A DNA stretch of 43,036 nucleotides from the IMG/VR virus record IMGVR_UViG_2671180804_000003, positions 1-43,036 of that record. One strand, written 5' to 3'. Positions 2,577 to 36,923 of the stretch are shown in pieces (position 1 is the first letter of the stretch; each line of letters starts with the position of its first letter). Under the pieces are notes generated by a model that was not told the origin of the DNA, did no database searches, and was given only the letters and a program-made list of their open reading frames with translations. The DNA is from a virus (lineage: Duplodnaviria; Heunggongvirae; Uroviricota; Caudoviricetes). The position numbers and the translations under genes were made by a program.

Positions 2577-3715
2577 ACAAAATTCACCCCGCCAAGCACC
2601 GGAATTTCGCCAACAGCAAAGGTGATATTGGCCGTCGGAGAGTTAAGAATATAGCCCGTCGTGCCGCTAACACCGCCGATACTCCCGTTAATATCAGAGA
2701 GGTAAACTTTCCCGGAACCATCAGGGTTAGCTTCATCAAAAAACAGCGCCGTCAGCGCGTCTTTTATCCCCTGAACTGTGGTGCTGTCGGCATTTTTGAT
2801 CCCAGAGATTTCAATATTGATGACTTTCTTGATCGGGGAACATACGAAAACAATGGCAGTGTCTGTCTGCTGCGGATAGATGTGGTCGGCGACAGCGAGC
2901 TGGTCTCCGGTGGCTTTAACAGCCCCCCAGTCCTCAAGTTGGGATATTCCGTCGGTACCGACCGGAAACCCACCATTGTCATTCCGATCACACATGATAT
3001 ACACGCCAACGGTCCCGGCCCCGTTCAGACGCCGCTTTACCCACGCGCGGGTGACGCCCGAAACCTCAAGCGCCCATTTTTTATAATCGGCGTCGCTTCC
3101 ACCCTGAGGCGGATTCTGCCATGCCAGCAAGCCACGACTGCGAAAATCCTCTTCCGTTTCAATATCGGCTCCGCCGGTCGCAGCGGACAGTAACGTTACC
3201 TGTGGATCCACGCCAGCAATATTCGCGTCCAGGGTCATTATGGTCCCGGCATCAGCGTTACCGCGCGCGCCTCCACCCGTTACATCACTGGTAATATCCG
3301 GCAGTATGGCCGTCACCGCGACGATACCAAATCCATCTGCCTGAATTTTAAGATCTGCATCCGTCCGGTACTGGTATCCGTCCCCGCGGTTAATGATCGA
3401 GCCAACAGGGATAATACAGTCAACACTGCCACTAGCCTGTACCGCAGGCGACTTCGCCGCTGCAGCTGGTTTTCTGAATACCTGCTTAAGGGCCATCCAC
3501 CCGGCGAGATACTCATCGGTAGAGGTAAACGGGTTTGTCTGCAGGGCAATATAGTCAAGGTAGGCGTAATGCAGATGCCCCATCCCCGCATCCATGTCAG
3601 CCAGTACCTTCAGGTTCGCGAAGCGCAGGAGCGCACCAACATCCTCAAGCTCCGCCTGCATAAATTTCCGGTTTCCGTCGCGGAGTTCGCTCAGCGTCGG
3701 TCGTTTAAACGGCAT
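2573..3715 (-). CDS. Baseplate J-like protein (Mu gp47-like)
   Basis: About 380 aa from internal ATG (MPFKRPTLSEL); synteny in Mu-type baseplate cluster. Confidence 0.75.
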   Translation of the reverse strand: MPFKRPTLSELRDGNRKFMQAELEDVGALLRFANLKVLADMDAGMGHLHYAYLDYIALQTNPFTSTDEYLAGWMALKQVFRKPAAAAKSPAVQASGSVDCIIPVGSIINRGDGYQYRTDADLKIQADGFGIVAVTAILPDITSDVTGGGARGNADAGTIMTLDANIAGVDPQVTLLSAATGGADIETEEDFRSRGLLAWQNPPQGGSDADYKKWALEVSGVTRAWVKRRLNGAGTVGVYIMCDRNDNGGFPVGTDGISQLEDWGAVKATGDQLAVADHIYPQQTDTAIVFVCSPIKKVINIEISGIKNADSTTVQGIKDALTALFFDEANPDGSGKVYLSDINGSIGGVSGTTGYILNSPTANITFAVGEIPVLGGVNFV

Positions 3716-4154: not shown

Positions 4155-4735
4155 GTCACCTGATCCTCTGTTTTTTGGCTGCGGATATTGTCATTGCCAC
4201 TCTGGGCATTTTTAACCACATGATCATGGTCATTATGTGCATCCCGCAGCTCTTTCAGTGTTCGGGTATTGGTTTCACAGTTATCAACAATGTCACCCGT
4301 GCACCTCAGGATCGGGGTATTTGCAAGGATCCCCTGGCTGGCATTGATGGTCACGTTAGTGGCGTTATTGACCTCAACATTCTGGCCCTTTGCATCCAGG
4401 AAGATCCCCTTCTCCGTCAGGAGAATATTAAGGCCCCACTGGTTATACATGACCGTTTCGCCCGCTTTCAGGCCTGTATGACGGAACCCCTGATGGTTGG
4501 ACGCAATTACCACCGCGCTGGAACGATCACCGCCAATAAAAGCCAGAACCACGTCAGTCCCTGACGGCAGGCCGGATGAAAAGCCAAATTCTGCCATCCG
4601 CGGAGCGCTGGCCACCTCCAGCGGAGTCTGGTACTGGATAGACTGCACCACCCCACCATCTTTCATAGCCGTGATCCGGCCAATCCCCAGCATGCCGGCG
4701 ATCCTGGTCGCTGCATGTTTAAATAGTTGCTTCAT
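4151..4735 (-). CDS. Baseplate assembly/spike protein (Mu gp45-like, gpV family)
   Basis: 194 aa; synteny between hub and GP46 genes. Confidence 0.65.
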   Translation of the reverse strand: MKQLFKHAATRIAGMLGIGRITAMKDGGVVQSIQYQTPLEVASAPRMAEFGFSSGLPSGTDVVLAFIGGDRSSAVVIASNHQGFRHTGLKAGETVMYNQWGLNILLTEKGIFLDAKGQNVEVNNATNVTINASQGILANTPILRCTGDIVDNCETNTRTLKELRDAHNDHDHVVKNAQSGNDNIRSQKTEDQVT

Positions 4736-5817
4736 GTATTGAATCCCGCCAGGTTCTGGTAGAAGGCATATGGCTGAACGGAGAATGCTTCAGGCGGCAT
4801 CAGCGTCATGCGTGCATGGGTGCCGTAGTCATCGCGCATATAGGTGACTTCTGCCAGTAGCAATTCAGTCTTCGGCAACCGTAAGGTGGGAAGATCAACG
4901 GGGATCAATGTGTTTGGTTCCCACAGTTTCCCGTCTTTATCCCGCCAGGAATCGATGGTTACCGAGAGCTGTTTTGAACGTCCGTACCGCCGGTTCATTT
5001 CCCAGTCGATCGCACTTTGTGCCTGTTGAGTAGCCATCAGGGTACTTTCCACAATCGATATATGTTTTCGGTACCGCATGCGGGCGGCCTCCGGATCTCT
5101 CGCCGTTGCCAGAGTCACAGCGTCATAGGCCGTATCAGGCGAATACCCTGCAATTGGAGAAACGCTCATTGATACACCGACATAATCTGAAAACCTGTCA
5201 GCCATCGATTTGCGGTAGTATGCCTGCTCGACATTTACCCCTTCGGCTATCCCACTTGCCGCACGACGTGTTCCCACCCGGGTCAGTAACAGGTTTCCAT
5301 CGGGCTGATCGTAGTAAAGCAGAGCAGACCATCTGGCCACCCGATCGATGACTTCTTGCGGAGACTCACCCCAGTTCAGAGTGAACTGGGGTACCTTCAC
5401 AAGTTCATCAACATCCGTGGTTACGGTGATGCCGTAGTAGGATGCCAGGCGAGAAGCAATTTCAAGCGCATTACTGGCATTGATGACGTTGTTAGGCCAC
5501 TCGGCTGAGCAATCCACCAGGTCCTGACATTTGCTCCTGCCCGTGGCGCGGACCTCATGGCGGGAGCGCGATAGTGCGGGTTCCCAGTCATCAACATATC
5601 CCGTCAGTGTCAGATCATCTCCGATACGAACTTCACAAGACATTCCCTCTTCAACGAGTTGACGATCTTCGTTGCCAGGGAAGTAATCCATTAGCCCAAG
5701 ATCGAAATCAGAGGGAAAACGCTCAATACCCCGCGTTACCCGGACAGAATCCCACCCCTCGATGATTTTGCCGTCGACCGTCAAAGAAACAACATCCAGA
5801 TCGCTGTCTGCATTCAT
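4732..5817 (-). CDS. Baseplate hub / tail protein (Mu gp44-like, late control D family)
   Basis: 361 aa; synteny downstream of DNA circularisation protein. Confidence 0.65.
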   Translation of the reverse strand: MNADSDLDVVSLTVDGKIIEGWDSVRVTRGIERFPSDFDLGLMDYFPGNEDRQLVEEGMSCEVRIGDDLTLTGYVDDWEPALSRSRHEVRATGRSKCQDLVDCSAEWPNNVINASNALEIASRLASYYGITVTTDVDELVKVPQFTLNWGESPQEVIDRVARWSALLYYDQPDGNLLLTRVGTRRAASGIAEGVNVEQAYYRKSMADRFSDYVGVSMSVSPIAGYSPDTAYDAVTLATARDPEAARMRYRKHISIVESTLMATQQAQSAIDWEMNRRYGRSKQLSVTIDSWRDKDGKLWEPNTLIPVDLPTLRLPKTELLLAEVTYMRDDYGTHARMTLMPPEAFSVQPYAFYQNLAGFNT

Positions 5818-24843: not shown

Positions 24844-25248
24844 TCAAGCAGCAGGTTCGGATGGATAAACCTGCTCATACATCTGCTGAAGGGTGTCAAT
24901 AGCTTTGTTAGCCATTATCAATATAGCTTCCGCATCAGCCTTACTTAAAGTTCTATCAAGCTCGTAATCTGCCCATTTACGTCGGGTATGCAAATGTCTC
25001 AGCATTGTTCCCATAGAAATGAGTTTCATTTTTTCAAACGGCTCATTTCCTTTTAACCATGCATCATTTGTAAGATAGTCGCGAACAGCTTGGTGTGACG
25101 ACTTGTTTGGGCATTTCTCAAGCTTATCAAGCGTTTCATGATAAACTCCATAATACGCTCGACCAATGGCGTTTCTGTAACCGATTTCATCGTTGTGAGA
25201 AATGCATTTACCAGCAAAAACAATAAAATCTTTCCCCGATACGCTCAT
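24844..25248 (-). CDS. HEPN-like small protein (putative RNase-type toxin/effector)
   Basis: 134 aa; RAYYGVYH (R-x6-H) in a predicted first helix plus RRKWADYE, resembling HEPN hallmarks; AT-rich; start overlaps upstream stop (ATGA). Confidence 0.5.
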   Translation of the reverse strand: MSVSGKDFIVFAGKCISHNDEIGYRNAIGRAYYGVYHETLDKLEKCPNKSSHQAVRDYLTNDAWLKGNEPFEKMKLISMGTMLRHLHTRRKWADYELDRTLSKADAEAILIMANKAIDTLQQMYEQVYPSEPAA

Positions 25249-32216: not shown

Positions 32217-33067
32217 CCTCTGAACCCCTCTGGAATCTTGCTATCAACCGGACCGAACTTCATCGGGTCATGTTTCTTTTCACCCCAGCTGTCACGCGGT
32301 GGCCGCCCCTTCTTGTCCCAGCGGATCCCGCTTTGCAGATAACCTTCAAATTTTTTCGGACCGAAGAGCGTTTCAGGACGCATGTACTGGTACTGCACGT
32401 CATTGCCGTTCCAGTGCTCATGCTTAAGGTCGATCACCAGCTGTAAGTCGCTAACGGTGTAACCTTCACGCAGACGAGCACGGATGTTTTCCAGAGAAGT
32501 TTTTGATTTTTGGTATCGTGAGCCACTAACCAGGTTCAGATGATTCAGAACCAGGATGGCGTTATCGGTGATCATCACTTCAGGGTCTGGTTGCGGCGCA
32601 ACCGGACAAGAAGGTTTTTTAACTGATGGATCAGTAGTTGTATTTACTGACGGATCCCCCCCAGATTCTGACGGGTGAAAACCGCCTTTTTCATCGTTTT
32701 TTGATGCCTCAGATTTTGACGCGTCGGTTTTTGAGGCATCAGATTTTGATGCGTCAGAATCTGACAGGTGAGAAAAGGCAGCAGCCTGCAATTTCGCAAC
32801 ATTGAGCTGGTAAACGTTCGATGCATTTCGGTTGCCTTTACGGCGCTGCTGGCGGGTTAACCAACCATCTTTTTCCAGCTGAGATATGGCTGTACGAACC
32901 GTGCTCTCACCAGCACCAATCTGGCGCGCGATGGTAGCGATGGAAGGCCAGCTAACCCCTTCATCACTGCTGAAGTCTGCCAGACGCGCCATGATGGCAA
33001 CGCTGGATAACTTCATGCCTGACGAAGCGCATGCATCCCATACGTAACCGGTTAATTTAGTGCTCAT
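32213..33067 (-). CDS. Replication initiation protein (N-terminal HTH, O-like organisation)
   Basis: N-terminal HTH (WPSIATIARQIGAGESTVR); central SDASK repeats encoded by tandem DNA repeats; C-terminal conserved phage region. Confidence 0.55.
   Translation of the reverse strand: MSTKLTGYVWDACASSGMKLSSVAIMARLADFSSDEGVSWPSIATIARQIGAGESTVRTAISQLEKDGWLTRQQRRKGNRNASNVYQLNVAKLQAAAFSHLSDSDASKSDASKTDASKSEASKNDEKGGFHPSESGGDPSVNTTTDPSVKKPSCPVAPQPDPEVMITDNAILVLNHLNLVSGSRYQKSKTSLENIRARLREGYTVSDLQLVIDLKHEHWNGNDVQYQYMRPETLFGPKKFEGYLQSGIRWDKKGRPPRDSWGEKKHDPMKFGPVDSKIPEGFRG
32661..32770. repeat. Tandem 15/30-bp repeats inside replication gene (iteron-like, candidate ori)
   Basis: TTGATGCCTCAGATTTTGACGCGTCGG / TTGAGGCATCAGATTTTGATGCGTCAG with flanking partial copies. 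Confidence 0.45.
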
Positions 33068-33076
33068 GGTCGTCCT

Positions 33077-33415
33077 TTAATTCTGTAAATTTACGCTGGA
33101 ATTGTTCAAGAGGGCTGAAGCACTCATGATCGTACCCTTCGCGAAGGTATATAACGCGCTGTGTATCTGGCTCCCAGCGGACAACTCTGACGGGAACTCC
33201 GTAGTGATCTCTGAACCGCCGGTTAACTTCAGCCATTCCTCGCGCCCCTTCTCGTTCATCTGAACAAATGCTTCTACCATCAAGTCTGCTGGCTGGTAGT
33301 TGCCTCCATCAGCCGCGTTATTTATGATTTCCACATAGCCGAACTGGGCATCTTTACCCACCAGCGGCAAACATCTGAATTGCTTAGCTGGTCTGAATCG
33401 GTTTACACTGTTCAT
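33077..33415 (-). CDS. Hypothetical protein
   Basis: 112 aa ORF between CII-like and replication genes; no family recognised. Confidence 0.35.
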   Translation of the reverse strand: MNSVNRFRPAKQFRCLPLVGKDAQFGYVEIINNAADGGNYQPADLMVEAFVQMNEKGREEWLKLTGGSEITTEFPSELSAGSQIHSALYTFAKGTIMSASALLNNSSVNLQN

Positions 33416-33975
33416 GCGTTAGTTTCTCCACTGATACGACACGCCAAGGCGCCCGGAGCTGCACACTCGCGGGCGTCACCTTTTCTGCCTGTTGAAACGA
33501 ATACGTCAATCGCCTGATCTGAAACACCAACCCCATAAAGCGCCATAAATCCCAGGAACCCGTGAATCTGGTGGCGGAGCTTCTTACTGAATAATTCTGA
33601 AAGCGTTTTGCGCTCTGATGAATCAATTACCCCATCAGCCGCTGCTGCCATCTTGGCATTAGCCAGCTCACCAGATGCTGCTGCCGCTTTCATCTCAATG
33701 CTGTACAGCTCAACGTTATCCAGGCTCTCAGCAGTTGGAACATCCACCAGCCATTTCCCTTTTCGGTTCGCCTGGTACTCGGCCAAGTAACAAGAACCAG
33801 ACAGGTCCTCCATCCGTTCCAGTTCTGCCAAGGTAAAGAACCGACTGCCACACTTCTGGTACAGGTGGTTGTGGAACTGGTCGATAGTCATCCCTAAATC
33901 GGAAGCCATACCTAAGCGACCATGCTTGTGTGCCTTACACATCAGGCGGATTGCTGTATTTATGCTGTCTACCAT
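33412..33975 (-). CDS. CII-like / YdaT-like regulatory protein
   Basis: Start at MVDSINTAIRLM; position directly after Cro-like gene as in Rac-type immunity regions. Confidence 0.45.
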   Translation of the reverse strand: MVDSINTAIRLMCKAHKHGRLGMASDLGMTIDQFHNHLYQKCGSRFFTLAELERMEDLSGSCYLAEYQANRKGKWLVDVPTAESLDNVELYSIEMKAAAASGELANAKMAAAADGVIDSSERKTLSELFSKKLRHQIHGFLGFMALYGVGVSDQAIDVFVSTGRKGDARECAAPGALACRISGETNA

Positions 33976-34001
33976 GTTGATTTCCCTCTGGTAGTTAATA
34001 A

Positions 34002-34016
34002 TCAACTTAAAGTTGA
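34002..34016. promoter_or_regulatory. Palindromic operator-like site TCAACTTAAAGTTGA
   Basis: Perfect 7-1-7 inverted repeat between Cro-like and CII-like genes; related to the sites at 34296 and 35169. Confidence 0.4.
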
Positions 34017-34264
34017 CTATTGTTGTTAGCGGAAGGTATGCCGTCATTTTTGTTCGGATAAATATCAGGTCGTAATTGATGGGGAGTTACTACCCATCCG
34101 CCCCATTGGCAGAGTTGAATAACTCTTTCAGAAGGTACTCGGTTCTTTGCAATCCAGTTCGCAACAGATTGAACTGATTGGAATTCAAACCGCCTTGATA
34201 CCTCTGAAATCGACCCGATCGCCTTCACAGCTTTAGCTGTTACATTCTTGTGTTGAGATGACAT
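34007..34264 (-). CDS. Cro-like repressor (YdaS/Cro family HTH)
   Basis: Start at MSSQHKNV; VANWIAKNRVPSERV...LRPDIY matches the YdaS/Cro pattern; divergent from cI-like gene. Confidence 0.7.
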   Translation of the reverse strand: MSSQHKNVTAKAVKAIGSISEVSRRFEFQSVQSVANWIAKNRVPSERVIQLCQWGGWVVTPHQLRPDIYPNKNDGIPSANNNSQL

Positions 34265-34295
34265 GTGTTCTCCTATGACTAAGCCTGCATCAATA

Positions 34296-34308
34296 CTACT
34301 TATAGTAG
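34296..34308. promoter_or_regulatory. Operator-like inverted repeat CTACT-TAT-AGTAG in cro/cI divergent promoter region
   Basis: Located between Cro-like start (34264) and cI-like start (34334); shares half-site with 35169 site. Confidence 0.45.
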
Positions 34309-34333
34309 CAATTATTAGCAACTTAAAATAGAA

Positions 34334-35053
34334 ATGACAACTATGCCTTGTGCGCTTAATCTTCTACTTATGGTGGAAAATGCTAAATACAAAGACTTTG
34401 CCGAAAGGCTAAACAGGTCTCTCCAAGAGCAATCTATTGGAGTTAAAGAATTGTCAGAGTTCAGTGGTGTCTCGTATGAGATGGCGCGGCGCTACACTCT
34501 TGGTACTGCAAAGCCGAGAGATGAGAAGATGATTCGAATTGCAGAAAGACTTGCCGTCTCACCGGCTTATCTTGATTATGGTGTGCCTGTTAATGGTGGC
34601 GACGCGCCAGCCAAAGGCACGGTCAGAATAGAGCAATTGGATGTTCATGCTTCAGCCGGTTCCGGATATATAAACCAACCATTCCCTACAATAGTGAGCT
34701 CAATAGAGATTCCAGAAGAGAGGATCTTCGAGTTGTTTGGTCGTAGAAGCCTTGATGGCATCGTCATGATAAATGTTGATGGCGATAGCATGATGCCCAC
34801 GCTTTGCCCAAAGGACCTGCTTTTCATAGACAGCAAGGTTGAACAATTCAGCGGCGACGGCGTTTATGTGTTCAATTTTGAAGACAGTACGTTCGTTAAA
34901 CGTTTGCAGAAGGTAAAAGGGCGCCGACTGGCAGTTCTTTCAGACAATGAACATTACCCGCCCTTCTTCATAGAGGAGCATGAAATGAATGAACTATACA
35001 TATTCGGCAAGCTAATCAGATGCTTACCTCTAAAAATGATAGAGTTTGGCTAA
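34334..35053 (+). CDS. CI-like repressor (XRE HTH plus S24 LexA-type autopeptidase domain)
   Basis: N-terminal HTH; C-terminal GDSMMPTL and FVKRL (Ser/Lys dyad); no SD upstream, consistent with a leaderless start. Confidence 0.85.
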   Translation: MTTMPCALNLLLMVENAKYKDFAERLNRSLQEQSIGVKELSEFSGVSYEMARRYTLGTAKPRDEKMIRIAERLAVSPAYLDYGVPVNGGDAPAKGTVRIEQLDVHASAGSGYINQPFPTIVSSIEIPEERIFELFGRRSLDGIVMINVDGDSMMPTLCPKDLLFIDSKVEQFSGDGVYVFNFEDSTFVKRLQKVKGRRLAVLSDNEHYPPFFIEEHEMNELYIFGKLIRCLPLKMIEFG

Positions 35054-35070
35054 TAATTAATTCATCAAGA

Positions 35071-35094
35071 AACCGGCGAAAGCCGGTTTTTTTT
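35071..35094 (+). terminator. Rho-independent terminator after cI-like gene
   Basis: AACCGGC-GAAA-GCCGGTT followed by T8. Confidence 0.65.
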
Positions 35095-35168
35095 ACGCCT
35101 CCAATTCCTCACCTCATAACACTACACTACTAAAAATTTCATTTTCTACTTTTTGTTGTTGCAATTAT

Positions 35169-35181
35169 CTACTTAAAGTAG
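35169..35181. promoter_or_regulatory. Operator-like perfect palindrome CTACTTAAAGTAG (OL-like)
   Basis: 6-1-6 inverted repeat upstream of the plus-strand early operon. Confidence 0.45.
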
Positions 35182-35297
35182 CTATAGTCATTGCATCGAA
35201 AGCGAACAGGCAGGACGCCCACGAAGTAGCCGCCGGTGGCATATGAATAACCGGATGATTCGCTGACAGAAAACTTAGGTTGGGGGTAGAGGTTTAC

Positions 35298-35663
35298 ATG
35301 AATCATTTATTCACATGCTCATTTTGCGGAGCAACCGAACTGGGAGCGATAAAGATCGTCGCAAAAGGTGGTAAGGACGAACCTGCCATCTGTTCGGAAT
35401 GCGTAGTCACATGTGTAGAAAAAATGATCCTGACTAAAAAATCAGAGGCTGAAAAACCAACCTCTGATAACGAAATAATATCAGTCGATAAAAAACTATT
35501 TAAAGAGCTTCTTCAGCTTGTCCTCAACCTTCCTGATTTCGGAAGTAAGCTGGCTGCTGTTGACATTGATAGTAGCTCCACATCGACAAGTGAAACTTTT
35601 GTTCGACTTGAGCCAAGCGATTTTCTTCTTCGTCTTAGTGCCGCACTTAGGGCATGCGGGTAA
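35298..35663 (+). CDS. Small protein with ClpX-type zinc-binding-like N-terminus
   Basis: CSFCG-x19-CSEC resembles the ClpX N-terminal zinc-binding domain; AGAGGT 4 nt upstream of ATG. Confidence 0.45.
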   Translation: MNHLFTCSFCGATELGAIKIVAKGGKDEPAICSECVVTCVEKMILTKKSEAEKPTSDNEIISVDKKLFKELLQLVLNLPDFGSKLAAVDIDSSSTSTSETFVRLEPSDFLLRLSAALRACG

Positions 35664-35693
35664 CGTAATTTCCTGGTTATCAAAAGCGCCCAT
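35496..35693 (-). CDS. Small zinc-ribbon-like protein, antisense and overlapping the 3' half of 35298-35663
   Basis: CPKCG-x17-CRCG motif; AGAGGG 6 nt upstream of second ATG. Confidence 0.3.
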   Translation of the reverse strand: MGAFDNQEITLPACPKCGTKTKKKIAWLKSNKSFTCRCGATINVNSSQLTSEIRKVEDKLKKLFK

Positions 35694-36005
35694 AAACATC
35701 CCTCTTGGTTGTGTGAGAACACCAAGATACCACCGCGCCTGATGTGGTTAAAAGCAGGCTAAAGCAATAACAAGTAACTCCCTGTTCTGGCGGCCCGGTG
35801 TTTTCCCGTGTATTTCCGGTAACCGCCAGCCTTTTTCAGGGCACAACAGAAAAGGGCATCACCGGGCGACGGGCTCATAACCCAATCCACCCGGGCAAAA
35901 AGAAAGCGGTCTCTGCAAGCCGCCGACCAATGCAGGTGCCCTTCTCTGTTGTGTATGGAGAAACTAACTTTTTAGCGTCTGTGCAGATGCGCTGAGGAAC
36001 CGAGA

Positions 36006-36923
36006 ATGAATAATCCGTTTTTCAAAAATATGTTGGTGTATCGCATTAGTCGCGATTTCACCATCAACCAGGAAGAGCTGGAACAGCAGCTTGAACTATT
36101 TCGCTTCACTCCATGCGGTAGCCAGGATATGGCAAAAACCGGTTGGGTATCACCACTTGGTCAGCTGTCAGATCGCTTGCATCACACTGTCAATAATCAA
36201 GTGTTGTTGGTTATTCGCCGGGAAGAAAAAATACTGCCATCTCCTGTCATTACTGAAGAACTGCGCAAGCGTGTGTCGCGTCTGGAATCCGATCAGGGGC
36301 GTCGCCTCAAAAAAACTGAGAAAGATTCGCTGCGTGATGAAGTGTTGCACTCCCTGCTTCCTCGGGCGTTCTCCAAAAACTCGACTGTTGGTTTGTGGAT
36401 CAACGTCACCGACGGTCTGATCATGGTTGATGCAGCCAGCGCTAAACGTGCCGAAGACTCACTGGCCCTGCTTCGTAAAACTCTCGGTTCTCTCCCGGTG
36501 GTACCGCTGACTATGGAAACGCCGATCGAACTAACTATGACCGACTGGGTTCGTTCCGGTAGTGCGCCTGCTGGCTTTGGCCTGGGTGATGAAGCCGAAC
36601 TGAAAGCTATTCTTGAAGATGGCGGTATTGGACGCTTTAAAAAACAGACTCTGGTCAGTGACGAAATTCATGTGCATCTGGAAGCTGGCAAAGTAGTTAC
36701 AAAGCTGTCTATCGACTGGCAACAGCGCATTCAGTTCGTTCTTTGCGATGACGGCAGCATCAAACGCCTTAAGTTCTCTAATGAGATTACAGAACAAAAC
36801 GACGATATCGACCGTGAGGATGCGGCTCAGCGGTTCGACGCTGACTTTGTTCTGATGACCGGCGAGCTTATCTCTCTCATTAACGGATTAACAACCTCTC
36901 TCGGCGGCGAAGCCAAGCGATAA
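36006..36923 (+). CDS. rdgC: Recombination-associated protein RdgC homologue
   Basis: 305 aa collinear with E. coli RdgC throughout ([60 protein letters not shown]). Confidence 0.9.

Follow-up and report, generated by a model that had tools for sequence, protein, structure and literature searches.

Candidate operators of a CI/Cro immunity switch with an HK022-like layout in a lambdoid prophage of Escherichia coli Nissle 1917

Genes of the immunity region

The DNA analysed here (the window) is a whole stretch of 43,036 bp. It is a lambdoid prophage, and its positions 33900-35350 are identical to the chromosome of E. coli Nissle 1917. A preliminary description had assigned cro-like, cI-like and cII genes to this region, and these assignments hold, as judged from domain matches, an alignment with HK022 cI and a match with PDB entry 3bd1. 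The cI-like repressor gene (34334..35053, + strand; WP_032140310.1) encodes HTH_3 and Peptidase_S24 domains, and its product is 33% identical to HK022 cI. The LexA-type self-cleavage motifs ASAG, GDSM and VKRL are found in the translation and align, at the sequence level, with HK022 cI. The predicted recognition helix, assigned from the HTH_3 topology, is GV(S/T)YEMARRYTLG; it is invariant through the family, and the adjacent helix and the N-terminus are variable. A PDB sequence search with the repressor gave no match at E <= 1e-3. Two start codons come into question for this gene: the annotated ATG 34334 (239 aa), and ATG 34370, whose 227-aa product (MVE...) aligns with residue 1 of HK022 cI, the alignment of the two repressors beginning at the MVE/MVQ methionine. 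The 12 codons between the two are free of stops in all 26 distinct versions, while the other two frames contain stops.

The cro-like gene (34007..34264, - strand; 85 aa; WP_024195799.1) is divergent from cI, with 69 bp between its ATG (34264) and ATG 34334, and is the first gene of the PR operon. It matches Pfam family YdaS_toxin (PF15943), and its product matches 3bd1, deposited as 'Cro protein', with E = 1e-5. A cro homologue adjoins that of cI in 67 of 71 related loci; the exceptions are L035 and L043-L045, where the search script detected none next to cI. The second gene of the rightward (PR) operon is the cII-like gene (33412..33975, - strand), which belongs to the Phage_CP76/YmfL family (PF06892, E = 2e-8) and is annotated in Nissle as a YmfL family regulator. 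The cI intrinsic terminator (35071..35094, + strand) consists of AACCGGC-GAAA-GCCGGTT followed by a T run (-16 kcal/mol, z = -4.95), and its hairpin is kept in relatives with compensatory changes. An Rfam scan of 33000-36500 (E <= 1) returned a single match, to STnc370; it falls on this terminator with a sub-threshold score (28.5 bits, the gathering score being 54) and was treated as due to chance.

A literature search for operator sequences and for repressor or operator work on Nissle prophages found no mention of either the sites or the repressor. The gene EcN_1294, called 'phage repressor pr' in Nissle (Bury et al. 2018, PMC5987069), is a different one: none of the four primers shares a 12-mer with the window, and the data of that study are therefore not applicable here.

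Candidate operator sites and predicted promoters

Three related palindromes had been reported around these genes, TCAACTTAAAGTTGA (34002-34016), CTACTTATAGTAG (34296-34308) and CTACTTAAAGTAG (35169-35181), together with a half-site CTACTTA (34364-34370). All four are present at these coordinates, and the positions ascribed to the palindromes, respectively at the cro/cII junction, between the divergent cro and cI genes, and upstream of the early operon, were confirmed. While the three proposed operators stand, the set was incomplete, in that two sites had been overlooked, CAACTTAAAATAG (34319-34331) and CTACTTTTTGTTG (35146-35158), each located 23 bp from one of the sites already noted. The OR region is tripartite and the OL region at least bipartite. 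The 'extra half-site', for its part, forms the left half of a complete 13-bp site, CTACTTATGGTGG (34364-34376). From these sites, the operator consensus is a 13-bp sequence made of C-W-A-C, five A/T-rich bases and G-T-W-G, in which CTAC/GTAG is the strong half-site; the secondary sites carry CAAC, CCAC or ATAG.

Could such palindromes arise by chance symmetry in A/T-rich DNA, or represent plain promoter sequence that no dedicated protein binds? The region is indeed A/T-rich and, when 3 mismatches are allowed to CWACTTAAAGTWG, the count over the whole window shows no excess (29, compared to 24.8 by chance). The operator signal is therefore carried by the near-perfect, clustered sites. With at most 1 mismatch, CWACTTAAAGTWG gives 6 strand matches at 4 places in the window (34003, 34296, 34319 and 35169), all of them inside the 1.2-kb immunity region. 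In 100 dinucleotide-preserving shuffles, the mean was 0.11 strand matches and the maximum 2, so that none reached 6; near-perfect copies are some 50 times commoner than expected. The OR3 and junction copies, moreover, are placed outside promoter spacers.

The comparison with relatives bears on the same question. It was conducted on 71 related loci, in which cI is 53 to 100% identical, and on the isolated Providencia phage PSTRCR_117lys; the non-redundant subset comprised 68 loci, with 55 distinct OR and 65 distinct OL sequences. This immunity group spans six genera, Escherichia, Mixta, Pantoea, Rouxiella, Providencia and Ca. Phlomobacter, a count that takes in the one isolated Providencia phage. 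OR1, OR2, OR3, OL2 and OL1 appeared as islands of conservation at fixed positions, in flanks that diverge freely, and both the OR1-OR2 and the OL2-OL1 distances were 23 bp, centre to centre, in all relatives. In an unbiased scan covering 375 kb, recurrent A/T-centred sites were confined to the positions of OR1-3 and OL1-2 and to the distal site of the cro/cII junction (OD). Fixed positions across six genera are not what chance or plain promoter sequence would produce, and this explanation, to which we give almost no credit, is effectively refuted by the comparative data. As far as can be judged from sequence, the palindromes are in all likelihood the operators of the CI/Cro immunity switch of this prophage, arranged in an HK022-like layout. 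The full set very probably amounts to six to seven evolutionarily conserved sites, the closest described relative being phage HK022.

In the OR region, CTAC-N5-GTAG is present at the exact position of OR1 (34296..34308) in 68 of the 68 non-redundant loci. OR2 (34319..34331), at 23 bp from OR1, has 1 mismatch; none of the 55 distinct OR regions departs from its left half CWAC or from the block AAAATAGAAATGAC. OR3 (34364..34376), which has 3 mismatches, lies 45 bp from OR2 with ATG 34370 at its centre. A site occupies this position in all 68 loci, and its positions 2 and 12 covary (CTAC..GTAG, CCAC..GTGG, CTAC..GTGG). The best-scoring PR candidate (34311..34340, - strand; 10/12 consensus in the promoter scan) has a -35 TTGTCA at 34340-34335, an 18-bp spacer and a -10 AATAAT at 34316-34311, which would place OR1 just downstream of its -10. 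A comparison of the PL and PR sequences of the relatives suggested by eye an alternative PR of PL-like architecture (34321-34293, - strand), with a -35 TTGCTA at 34321-34316 and a -10 TAGTAT at 34298-34293, and in this case OR1 would lie within the spacer. In both versions, OR1 and OR2 cover the predicted PR.

For cI itself, a PRM-like candidate promoter can be proposed at 34334..34362 (+ strand), with a -35 ATGACA at 34334-39, a 17-bp spacer and a -10 TAATCT at 34357-62; judging from these elements, transcription would start near ATG 34370. It was not called by the promoter scan of the region. Among relatives, ATGAC is invariant and the 36-nt distance constant, and the -10 keeps the form TA-NN-CT (TAATCT, TAACCT, TAAACT, TACTCT) despite changes in the encoded residue. 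This model competes with the evidence for a translation start 36 nt upstream, at 34334.

On the OL side, OL1 (35169..35181) is a perfect 6-1-6 palindrome, found in 65 of 68 loci, and fills the spacer of the predicted PL (35159..35188, + strand), formed by a -35 TTGCAA at 35159-64, an 18-bp spacer and a -10 TATAGT at 35183-88. Relatives keep TTGNNN and TATAKT-like hexamers at the same positions. OL2 (35146..35158) abuts the PL -35, so that OL2 and OL1 together overlap this promoter; 66 of 68 loci contain its sequence CTACTTTTTGTWG, at a constant 23 bp from OL1, and the sequence upstream of it is unrelated from one relative to another. A possible third site (35127..35139, CTACTAAAAATTT), at 19 bp from OL2 and with 3 mismatches, has a good left half-site only. 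Its ACTACT is kept in the E. coli sub-lineage only, with nothing comparable in other relatives, and the spacing varies; this weak OL3 was therefore left as doubtful.

Separately from the operators, a conserved structured RNA was observed in the PL leader (35195-35266). It matched no Rfam family. It does not correspond to the svsR sRNA (PMC12803456), which maps to the 3' end of cI, nor to a put-type element of HK022, given that a covariance model found no copy in the HK022 immunity-region segment (L073) and one per locus elsewhere. Coding by a - strand ORF (35169-35306) was rejected as an explanation of the conservation, because the only variable positions are those that covary as paired bases and because the ends of the ORF are not conserved. 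In the structure, the CGAA/UUCG helix proposed by RNAalifold was replaced by an outer helix (35201-06/35259-64), which covaries. Further along the same strand, at 35787-35836, there is a terminator-like hairpin.

The site at the cro/cII junction

At the junction, TCAACTTAAAGTTGA extends to a 25-bp palindrome (33997..34021) in which 11 of the 12 arm positions are complementary. Its core, CAACTTAAAGTTG (34003-34015), agrees with the CWAC form of the consensus without any mismatch. The cro stop codon (34007-09) falls within this OD site, the start codon of the cII-like gene is 27 bp downstream of the site, and the centres of OD and OR1 are 293 bp apart. It was found in 23 of the 68 non-redundant loci, all of which have a cI at least 86% identical. 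In the 17 distinct sequences, the half-sites C-A-C and GTTG are invariant, whereas 7 different centres occur and the flanks are variable. The OD-OR1 distance is 293 to 296 bp in all loci with OD, even where cro is 3-4 codons longer. About two-thirds of the relatives are devoid of OD, yet their cro is the same and so, often, is their cII-like gene; OD is therefore dispensable for the basic switch.

The junction palindrome might work as RNA instead, through a hairpin in the PR transcript involved in pausing or termination, in processing, or, jointly with the adjacent hairpin, in the control of cII translation, as an equivalent of lambda nutR/tR1, the interval to which it corresponds in position. 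When folded, the - strand RNA from 34030 to 33960 indeed forms an 11-bp hairpin over the palindrome and, after it, another in which the cII start codon is paired (-17.1 kcal/mol, z = -4.45). The first hairpin is not conserved, however: four other variants reach only -2.5 to -3.9, compared to -9.4 kcal/mol in the window type, and loci L030 and L031, where the site reads CTAC..GTTG, are without any symmetric pairs. The conserved part is the operator half-site, to the extent that the junction site of L030 is the exact OL2 sequence. In addition, no U run follows the hairpin, and no terminator was called there. Since the half-sites are conserved and the stem is not, an RNA hairpin or terminator was rejected as the main reading of the site, and we regard it as improbable, at roughly one chance in eight.

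A second alternative is that the junction site is bound by another protein than the OR and OL sites, either by Cro only, which would shut down cII once the lytic cycle is engaged, or by the CII-like protein. Its proximity to the cII-like start codon is compatible with this proposal, and it is the sole site with half-sites of the CAAC type, the weaker one, on both sides. OR2 and OL2 nevertheless contain CAAC/GTTG half-sites as well, opposite a CTAC or GTAG, and in L030 and L031 the junction site itself has CTAC on one side. Recognition by a distinct protein seems unlikely, though slightly less so than a role as RNA.

By analogy with HK022, the most likely role of OD is that of an auxiliary operator, placed about 300 bp from OR. 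Repressor binding at OD, with a part in immunity or in resistance to virulent mutants, would agree with the way its half-sites are conserved. In HK022, a CI operator 300 bp downstream of OR is involved in immunity (Carlson & Little, J Bacteriol 1993, as cited in PMC8053113). A more specific scenario, which we find plausible while giving it somewhat less than an even chance, is that OD was recently acquired in one sub-lineage, where it would loop to OR and serve in 'antivirulence' or in a block to read-through, amounting to an independent re-invention of the far-right operator of HK022. The extra operator of HK022 reportedly has such an 'antivirulence' phenotype. Two observations touch on this scenario: the repressor has an unrelated predicted recognition helix, yet the operator core is almost identical to that of HK022; and the cro stop codon is at the centre of the site, with 293 to 296 bp to OR1, that is, about 28 helical turns.

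Proposed switch and its relation to known systems

From the sequences, positions, clustering, conservation and spacing of the sites, and from the gene homologies, we infer the following course of regulation. Dimers of the LexA-like repressor would occupy, possibly in a cooperative manner, the pairs spaced by 23 bp, OR1 and OR2 over PR and OL1 and OL2 over PL, and this pairwise occupancy would shut off both early operons. Repressor bound at OR2, just upstream of the -35-like ATGACA, may boost the transcription of cI, and OR3, centred on ATG 34370, may provide negative autoregulation of cI. RecA-stimulated self-cleavage, with the Ala-Gly of HASAGSG as the predicted cleavage site, the Ser of GDSM and the Lys of VKRL, would then lead to derepression, after which the Cro-family protein would take the same sites. 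OD could bind the same repressor and bridge to OR by a loop of about 293 bp; also, or instead, it could prevent transcription from reading through into the cII-like gene.

These findings do not alter the general view of lambdoid regulation. They provide a concrete candidate operator map for a prophage of a strain used both as a probiotic and as a chassis, and the same map is valid for the immunity group in the six genera named above. It may be used for predicting homo-immunity among these prophages and for designing clean prophage-cured or non-inducible strains, and may yield an additional repressor/operator pair for synthetic circuits. Among lambda, 434, P22 and HK022, the HK022 repressor should be the first to be checked for cross-reactivity, because its operator core is nearly identical. 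Finally, few studies have addressed the role of extra operators since that on HK022, and the lineage-specific distal site offers a natural comparison of loci with and without it.

Several known switches share part of this organisation. The c2/CI-like repressors of phages of the P22 type, for instance ST104, ST160 and SE1, are among the nearest named phage repressors, with about 37% identity. The operators of 434 have the design ACAA-N6-TTGT, and the present sites resemble them in having short conserved outer half-sites around a variable A/T-rich centre. They differ from the operators of both 434 and P22 in half-site sequence and in length. In phages 186 (FL/FR) and TP901-1 (OD), an extra site is located a few hundred bp away from the main switch, to which the repressor could bridge it, and the one distal site found here could likewise be bridged to the main switch by the repressor. 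The repressor families, however, are unrelated, and their oligomerisation is different.

The likeness to lambda is more extensive. It includes the divergent cI and cro genes, the tripartite OR, an OL downstream of cI that overlaps PL, pairs of sites about 2.2 helical turns apart, a LexA-like repressor (self-cleaving here by its sequence motifs) and, possibly, a leaderless cI mRNA. The operators differ in that the cores are of 13 bp instead of 17 bp and unrelated in sequence, and that two OL sites are well conserved instead of three. Furthermore, the -35 hexamers proposed for PR and PRM overlap here, and the annotation of the Nissle prophage has no N gene after PL. The lambda OR/OL logic put forward initially applies to the OR and OL sites, with their overlap of the predicted promoters PR and PL, but the junction site fits the layout of HK022, and lambda is not known to have an operator between cro and cII.

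The closest parallel is with HK022, which has OL1-3, OR1-3 and the extra operator, and whose operator positions were re-derived from its sequence. The claim that the prophage uses a different operator sequence proved to be only partly right: both systems have 13-bp operators, and the core WAC-TTAAA-GTW is identical (GTACTTAAAGTTC in HK022, compared to CTACTTAAAGTAG here). The difference resides in the outermost base pair of the half-site, which is G in HK022, where the sites are GWAC-N5-GTWC, and C here. In both, one operator is centred on the cI ATG (GAACTTATGGTTC in HK022, CTACTTATGGTGG here), neighbouring sites are spaced by 23-24 bp, less than 1 kb separates OL from OR, and an extra site is located where cro ends, ahead of the next gene; in HK022 (L073 5448-60) it lies 8 bp beyond the cro stop, and here it covers the stop. 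In contrast, the predicted recognition helices are unrelated (TPKAISKW in HK022, SYEMARRY here), the Cro proteins have no detectable similarity, and the next gene is a lambda-type cII in HK022 and a CP76/YmfL gene here. The OR2-OR3 distance is 33 bp in HK022, compared to 45 bp here, HK022 has an OL3 53 bp from OL2, and the extra site of the present group is limited to one sub-lineage. Overall, the features of this locus argue that it is very probably an ordinary lambda-type switch, a previously undescribed example of a known system.

Operator-like sites in the immunity region

The 1.45 kb around the palindromes is 100% identical to the chromosome of E. coli Nissle 1917 (NZ_CP022686, 462288-463738) and 99.9% identical to Phi06_2987 S, a 14.5-kb phage record without annotation; the whole region is present in just 33 of 5,426 complete E. 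coli genomes. The genes are arranged as in a lambdoid immunity region seen in mirror image. On the + strand, the gene of a LexA-family repressor (cI; HTH_3 and Peptidase_S24) runs from 34334 or 34370 to 35053; after it come a terminator, then a promoter-like site, then an operon of leftward type that encodes a ClpX-zinc-finger protein, RdgC, further products, an excisionase and an integrase. Of the - strand genes, that at 34264-34007 encodes a small member of the Cro family (Pfam YdaS_toxin; PDB 3bd1 'Cro protein', E = 1e-5) and that at 33975-33412 a protein of the CII/CP76-YmfL type; beyond them lie genes for a DUF4222 protein, a replication-type protein, a methyltransferase, RusA, Ant and Q.

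The preliminary description had proposed three palindromes and one half-site as operators, and all the sequences it quoted were found where it placed them. With at most one mismatch, the motif CWACTTAAAGTWG gave six strand matches at four places of the whole window (34003, 34296, 34319 and 35169), compared to a mean of 0.11 in shuffled windows, none of 100 shuffles reaching six. With three mismatches allowed, the count over the whole window was not enriched; the signal therefore lies in near-perfect, clustered copies. The sole two-mismatch match outside the immunity region, TTACTTAAAGTTC at 24941-24953, one side of which reads as an HK022-type half-site, is probably due to chance. Two sites had been overlooked, namely OR2 (34319-31, CAACTTAAAATAG) and OL2 (35146-58, CTACTTTTTGTTG), each 23 bp from a palindrome already listed (OR1, 34296-308, and OL1, 35169-81). 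The supposed half-site belongs to a complete site, OR3 (34364-76), of which it forms the left half, and the palindrome located at 34002-16 in fact spans 25 bp (33997-34021).

A comparison was carried out on 71 loci encoding repressor relatives (53 to 100% identical), drawn from Mixta, Pantoea, Rouxiella and Ca. Phlomobacter genomes and from viral contigs, to which the isolated Providencia phage PSTRCR_117lys was added. Among 55 distinct OR and 65 distinct OL regions, the conserved blocks were sharp-edged and fixed in position, and the intervening and flanking sequence diverged. The consensus was of the type CTACTT(A/T)AAGTAG for OR1, CWAC-N5-ATAG followed by an invariant AAAATAGAAATGAC for OR2, C(T/C)AC-N5-GT(A/G)G for OR3, CTACTTTTTGT(A/T)G for OL2 and CTACTT(A/T)A(A/G)GTAG for OL1. 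Spacing from OR1 to OR2 and from OL2 to OL1 was 23 bp in every locus. A relaxed scan for A/T-centred sites over 375 kb (68 non-redundant loci) returned recurrent sites at five positions only: OR1 and OR3 (68 of 68 each), OL2 (66), OL1 (65) and the end of cro (23); OR2 escaped this count because its right half is ATAG.

On the protein side, the repressor segment GV(S/T)YEMARRYTLG is invariant family-wide, and the preceding helix and the N-terminus are variable. From the topology of the HTH_3 domain we take this segment to be the recognition helix; its invariance means that a single DNA-binding surface goes with a single half-site. Positions 2 and 12 of OR3 co-vary (CTAC..GTAG, CCAC..GTGG), which fits a dimer site and not a coding constraint. 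What the computation shows of these sites is their sequence and position, how they cluster, their conservation and spacing, and the homology of the genes around them; we consider the OR and OL sites very probable operators of repressor and Cro. By analogy with lambda, 434, P22 and HK022, repressor and Cro would bind them, paired sites would be occupied cooperatively, the repressor would activate and repress its own gene, and SOS induction would proceed through repressor self-cleavage.

Promoters and the start of cI

A consensus scan placed a PL-like promoter with its -35 box (TTGCAA) abutting OL2, its 18-bp spacer taken up by OL1, and its -10 box (TATAGT) right behind OL1. The top-scoring PR (-35 TTGTCA, 34340-35; -10 AATAAT, 34316-11) has OR2 within its spacer and OR1 across the start region. 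In more distant relatives PR and PL are nearly copies of one another, which suggests an alternative PR in the window, with its -35 box at 34321-16, its -10 box at 34298-93 and OR1 in the spacer. Either way, the predicted PR is covered by both OR1 and OR2.

For cI we propose, by inspection only, a candidate promoter with -35 ATGACA (34334-39), a 17-bp spacer and -10 TAATCT (34357-62), starting at or beside the ATG at 34370. It would place OR2 just 5' of the -35 box, as in lambda PRM, and OR3 across the start. This proposal fits the invariance of ATGAC, the constant 36-nt length between the ATG at 34334 and that at 34370, and the persistence of the TA..CT pattern despite a change of the encoded residue. 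Against it counts the reading of the same interval as coding sequence: the 12 codons from the annotated start at 34334 contain no stop in 26 distinct versions (11 sequence clusters), compared to up to four stops in the other two frames, so that translation seems to begin at 34334 on at least some transcripts. Neither in-frame ATG has a Shine-Dalgarno sequence, and the alignment with HK022 cI begins at the second methionine. The amino-acid sequence of the interval is highly variable, though its length is always exactly 36 nt. It is possible that two forms of the repressor are made from two kinds of transcript.

The palindrome at the cro/cII junction (core 34003-15) is confined to a sub-lineage whose cI is at least 86% identical (the window and loci L002 and L009-L031); the remaining relatives of the 71-locus set lack it, despite sharing the cro gene and often the cII-like gene as well. 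Within the sub-lineage it occurs as 17 distinct sequences, with variable flanks and seven centres (TTAAA, TAAAA, TTAGA, TGAGA, TTTTT, TAAAT and AATAA), and the columns C-A-C and G-T-T-G are unchanged in all 17. One version, in L030, is CTACTTTTTGTTG, identical to OL2. Conservation of an RNA stem was considered as the basis for this pattern: the window type folds at -9.4 kcal/mol locally and at -17.1 kcal/mol with its neighbour (z = -4.45). The fold is weak in four other variants, however, and absent in L030 and L031, where the halves are non-complementary, which makes this explanation unlikely. Since the half-sites are kept where the fold is lost or weak, selection appears to act on them and not on the stem. 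Most variants have the site 293 bp from OR1 and three have it 295-296 bp away, a distance unaltered where a stop-codon change adds 3-4 codons to cro. At 10.5 bp per turn it corresponds to 27.9-28.2 turns, and the 316 bp to OR2 to 30.1 turns. On balance, we favour the prediction that the junction site is an operator of the same repressor as OR and OL; going by lambda, 434, P22 and HK022, it might serve in looping or as a roadblock.

A separate hairpin is found at the cII-like start (33970-33994, - strand RNA, CUACCA-N13-UGGUAG). The start codon (AUGGUAG) pairs with CUACCA 5' of the Shine-Dalgarno sequence, which sits in the loop, and the hairpin is present in the MFE fold. Both GGTAGTTA and CTACCAT are invariant in every relative carrying this cII-like gene, and the hairpin may control cII translation. 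CTAC is at the same time the sequence of the operator half-site.

Non-coding elements of the PL operon

Directly behind the PL -10 box, at the 5' end of the PL transcript, lies a structured RNA element of about 70 nt (about 35195-35266, +; covariance-model match 35187-35276). It is conserved as DNA in 1,382 of 5,426 E. coli genomes, and occurs in phages whose immunity type differs (ST64B, SfV, SfII, SfIV, phiNP, ZF40, YeP1-3, AH07, mEp460, mEp237 and others). In the seven phages examined (ST64B, SfV, phiNP, ZF40, YeP1, mEp460 and AH07) it lies some 100-120 nt past the repressor stop codon. The covariance model found it in 16 of the 37 sources searched, with exactly one copy per element-bearing locus and none on the PR side in the 37; the HK022 immunity-region segment examined had no copy. 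Further copies were detected in E. coli K-12 e14, between ymfK and ymfJ, and in PR1, a virulent T5-like phage of Providencia, whose terminal repeat carries the element about 10 nt downstream of a TTGCTT-N16-TATACT that by eye resembles a promoter. The genes downstream, including the first PL gene, are unrelated between phages; the element is independent of immunity type and of downstream gene. In the window, the product of the first PL gene (35298-35663, +) is 121 aa long and contains a C4 zinc finger of the ClpX type (PF06689), whose match of 26.2 bits falls just under the curated cut-off of 27.

Covariation is strong in two helices, which compensatory changes support (9 of 14 pairs). Among 17 sequences, both sides changed in five of six pairs of the outer helix (35201-06/35259-64) and in four of five of the inner hairpin (35233-37/35250-54). 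Pairing is kept in 97.9% of cells overall, and the observed covariation was reached in none of 500 shuffles. Almost no variation is seen in the loop GGCAUAUGAAUA or in the stretch CACGAAGUAGCCGC. No Rfam family matched the element, and its sequence was not found in the searchable literature.

Between the ClpX-zinc-finger gene and rdgC, a terminator-like hairpin (35787-35836, +; CTGGCGG...CCGCCAG then CCTTTTT; -20.8 kcal/mol, z = -2.7) went uncalled by a simple terminator scan because its loop is long. It implies that PL-driven expression of rdgC and beyond requires read-through. This hairpin, together with the lack of an annotated N gene, leads to the hypothesis that the leader element is a putative cis-acting, put-like antiterminator; a putative platform or leader binding a host protein is another hypothesis. 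Upstream of rdgC (about 35851-35900) stands a CACCGGGCGACGGGCTCATAACCCAATCCACCCGGGC block, and a near-identical one is seen by eye right behind a PL-type promoter in a Mixta locus (L002, about 3380-3420); the block is possibly another leader element that is mobile and non-coding.

Comparison with lambda and HK022

The parallel with lambda OR/OL drawn in the preliminary description holds for the OR and OL sites, but not for the cro/cII-junction site, which has no counterpart in the lambda design. For HK022, the loopometer paper (PMC8053113) describes cooperative CI binding inside OL and inside OR, a distance of 53 bp between OL2 and OL3, and, citing Carlson & Little 1993, a CI operator 300 bp downstream of OR that is involved in immunity. 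In the HK022 segment (L073 coordinates) we located GTACTTAAAGTTC at 4325, GTACCAATAGTAC at 4349, GAACTTTAAGGAA at 4402 (53 bp beyond 4349, in agreement with that source), GAACCATAAGTTC at 5124, across the cI ATG, with a second copy at 5181, GTACTATCAGTTC at 5157, and GTACTTTTAGTAC at 5448, 8 bp past the cro stop. These sites give GWAC-N5-GTWC as the HK022 operator, which is that of the window apart from the outermost base pair. The layout is likewise common to both, with one site centred on the cI ATG and one at the end of cro. Resemblance is weaker between the proteins: identity of the repressors is 33% and their predicted recognition helices are unrelated, no similarity was seen between the two Cro proteins, and the genes after cro belong to different families. 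We conclude that the locus belongs to the lambdoid CI/Cro type and resembles HK022 in layout, and file it outside the HK022 immunity group.
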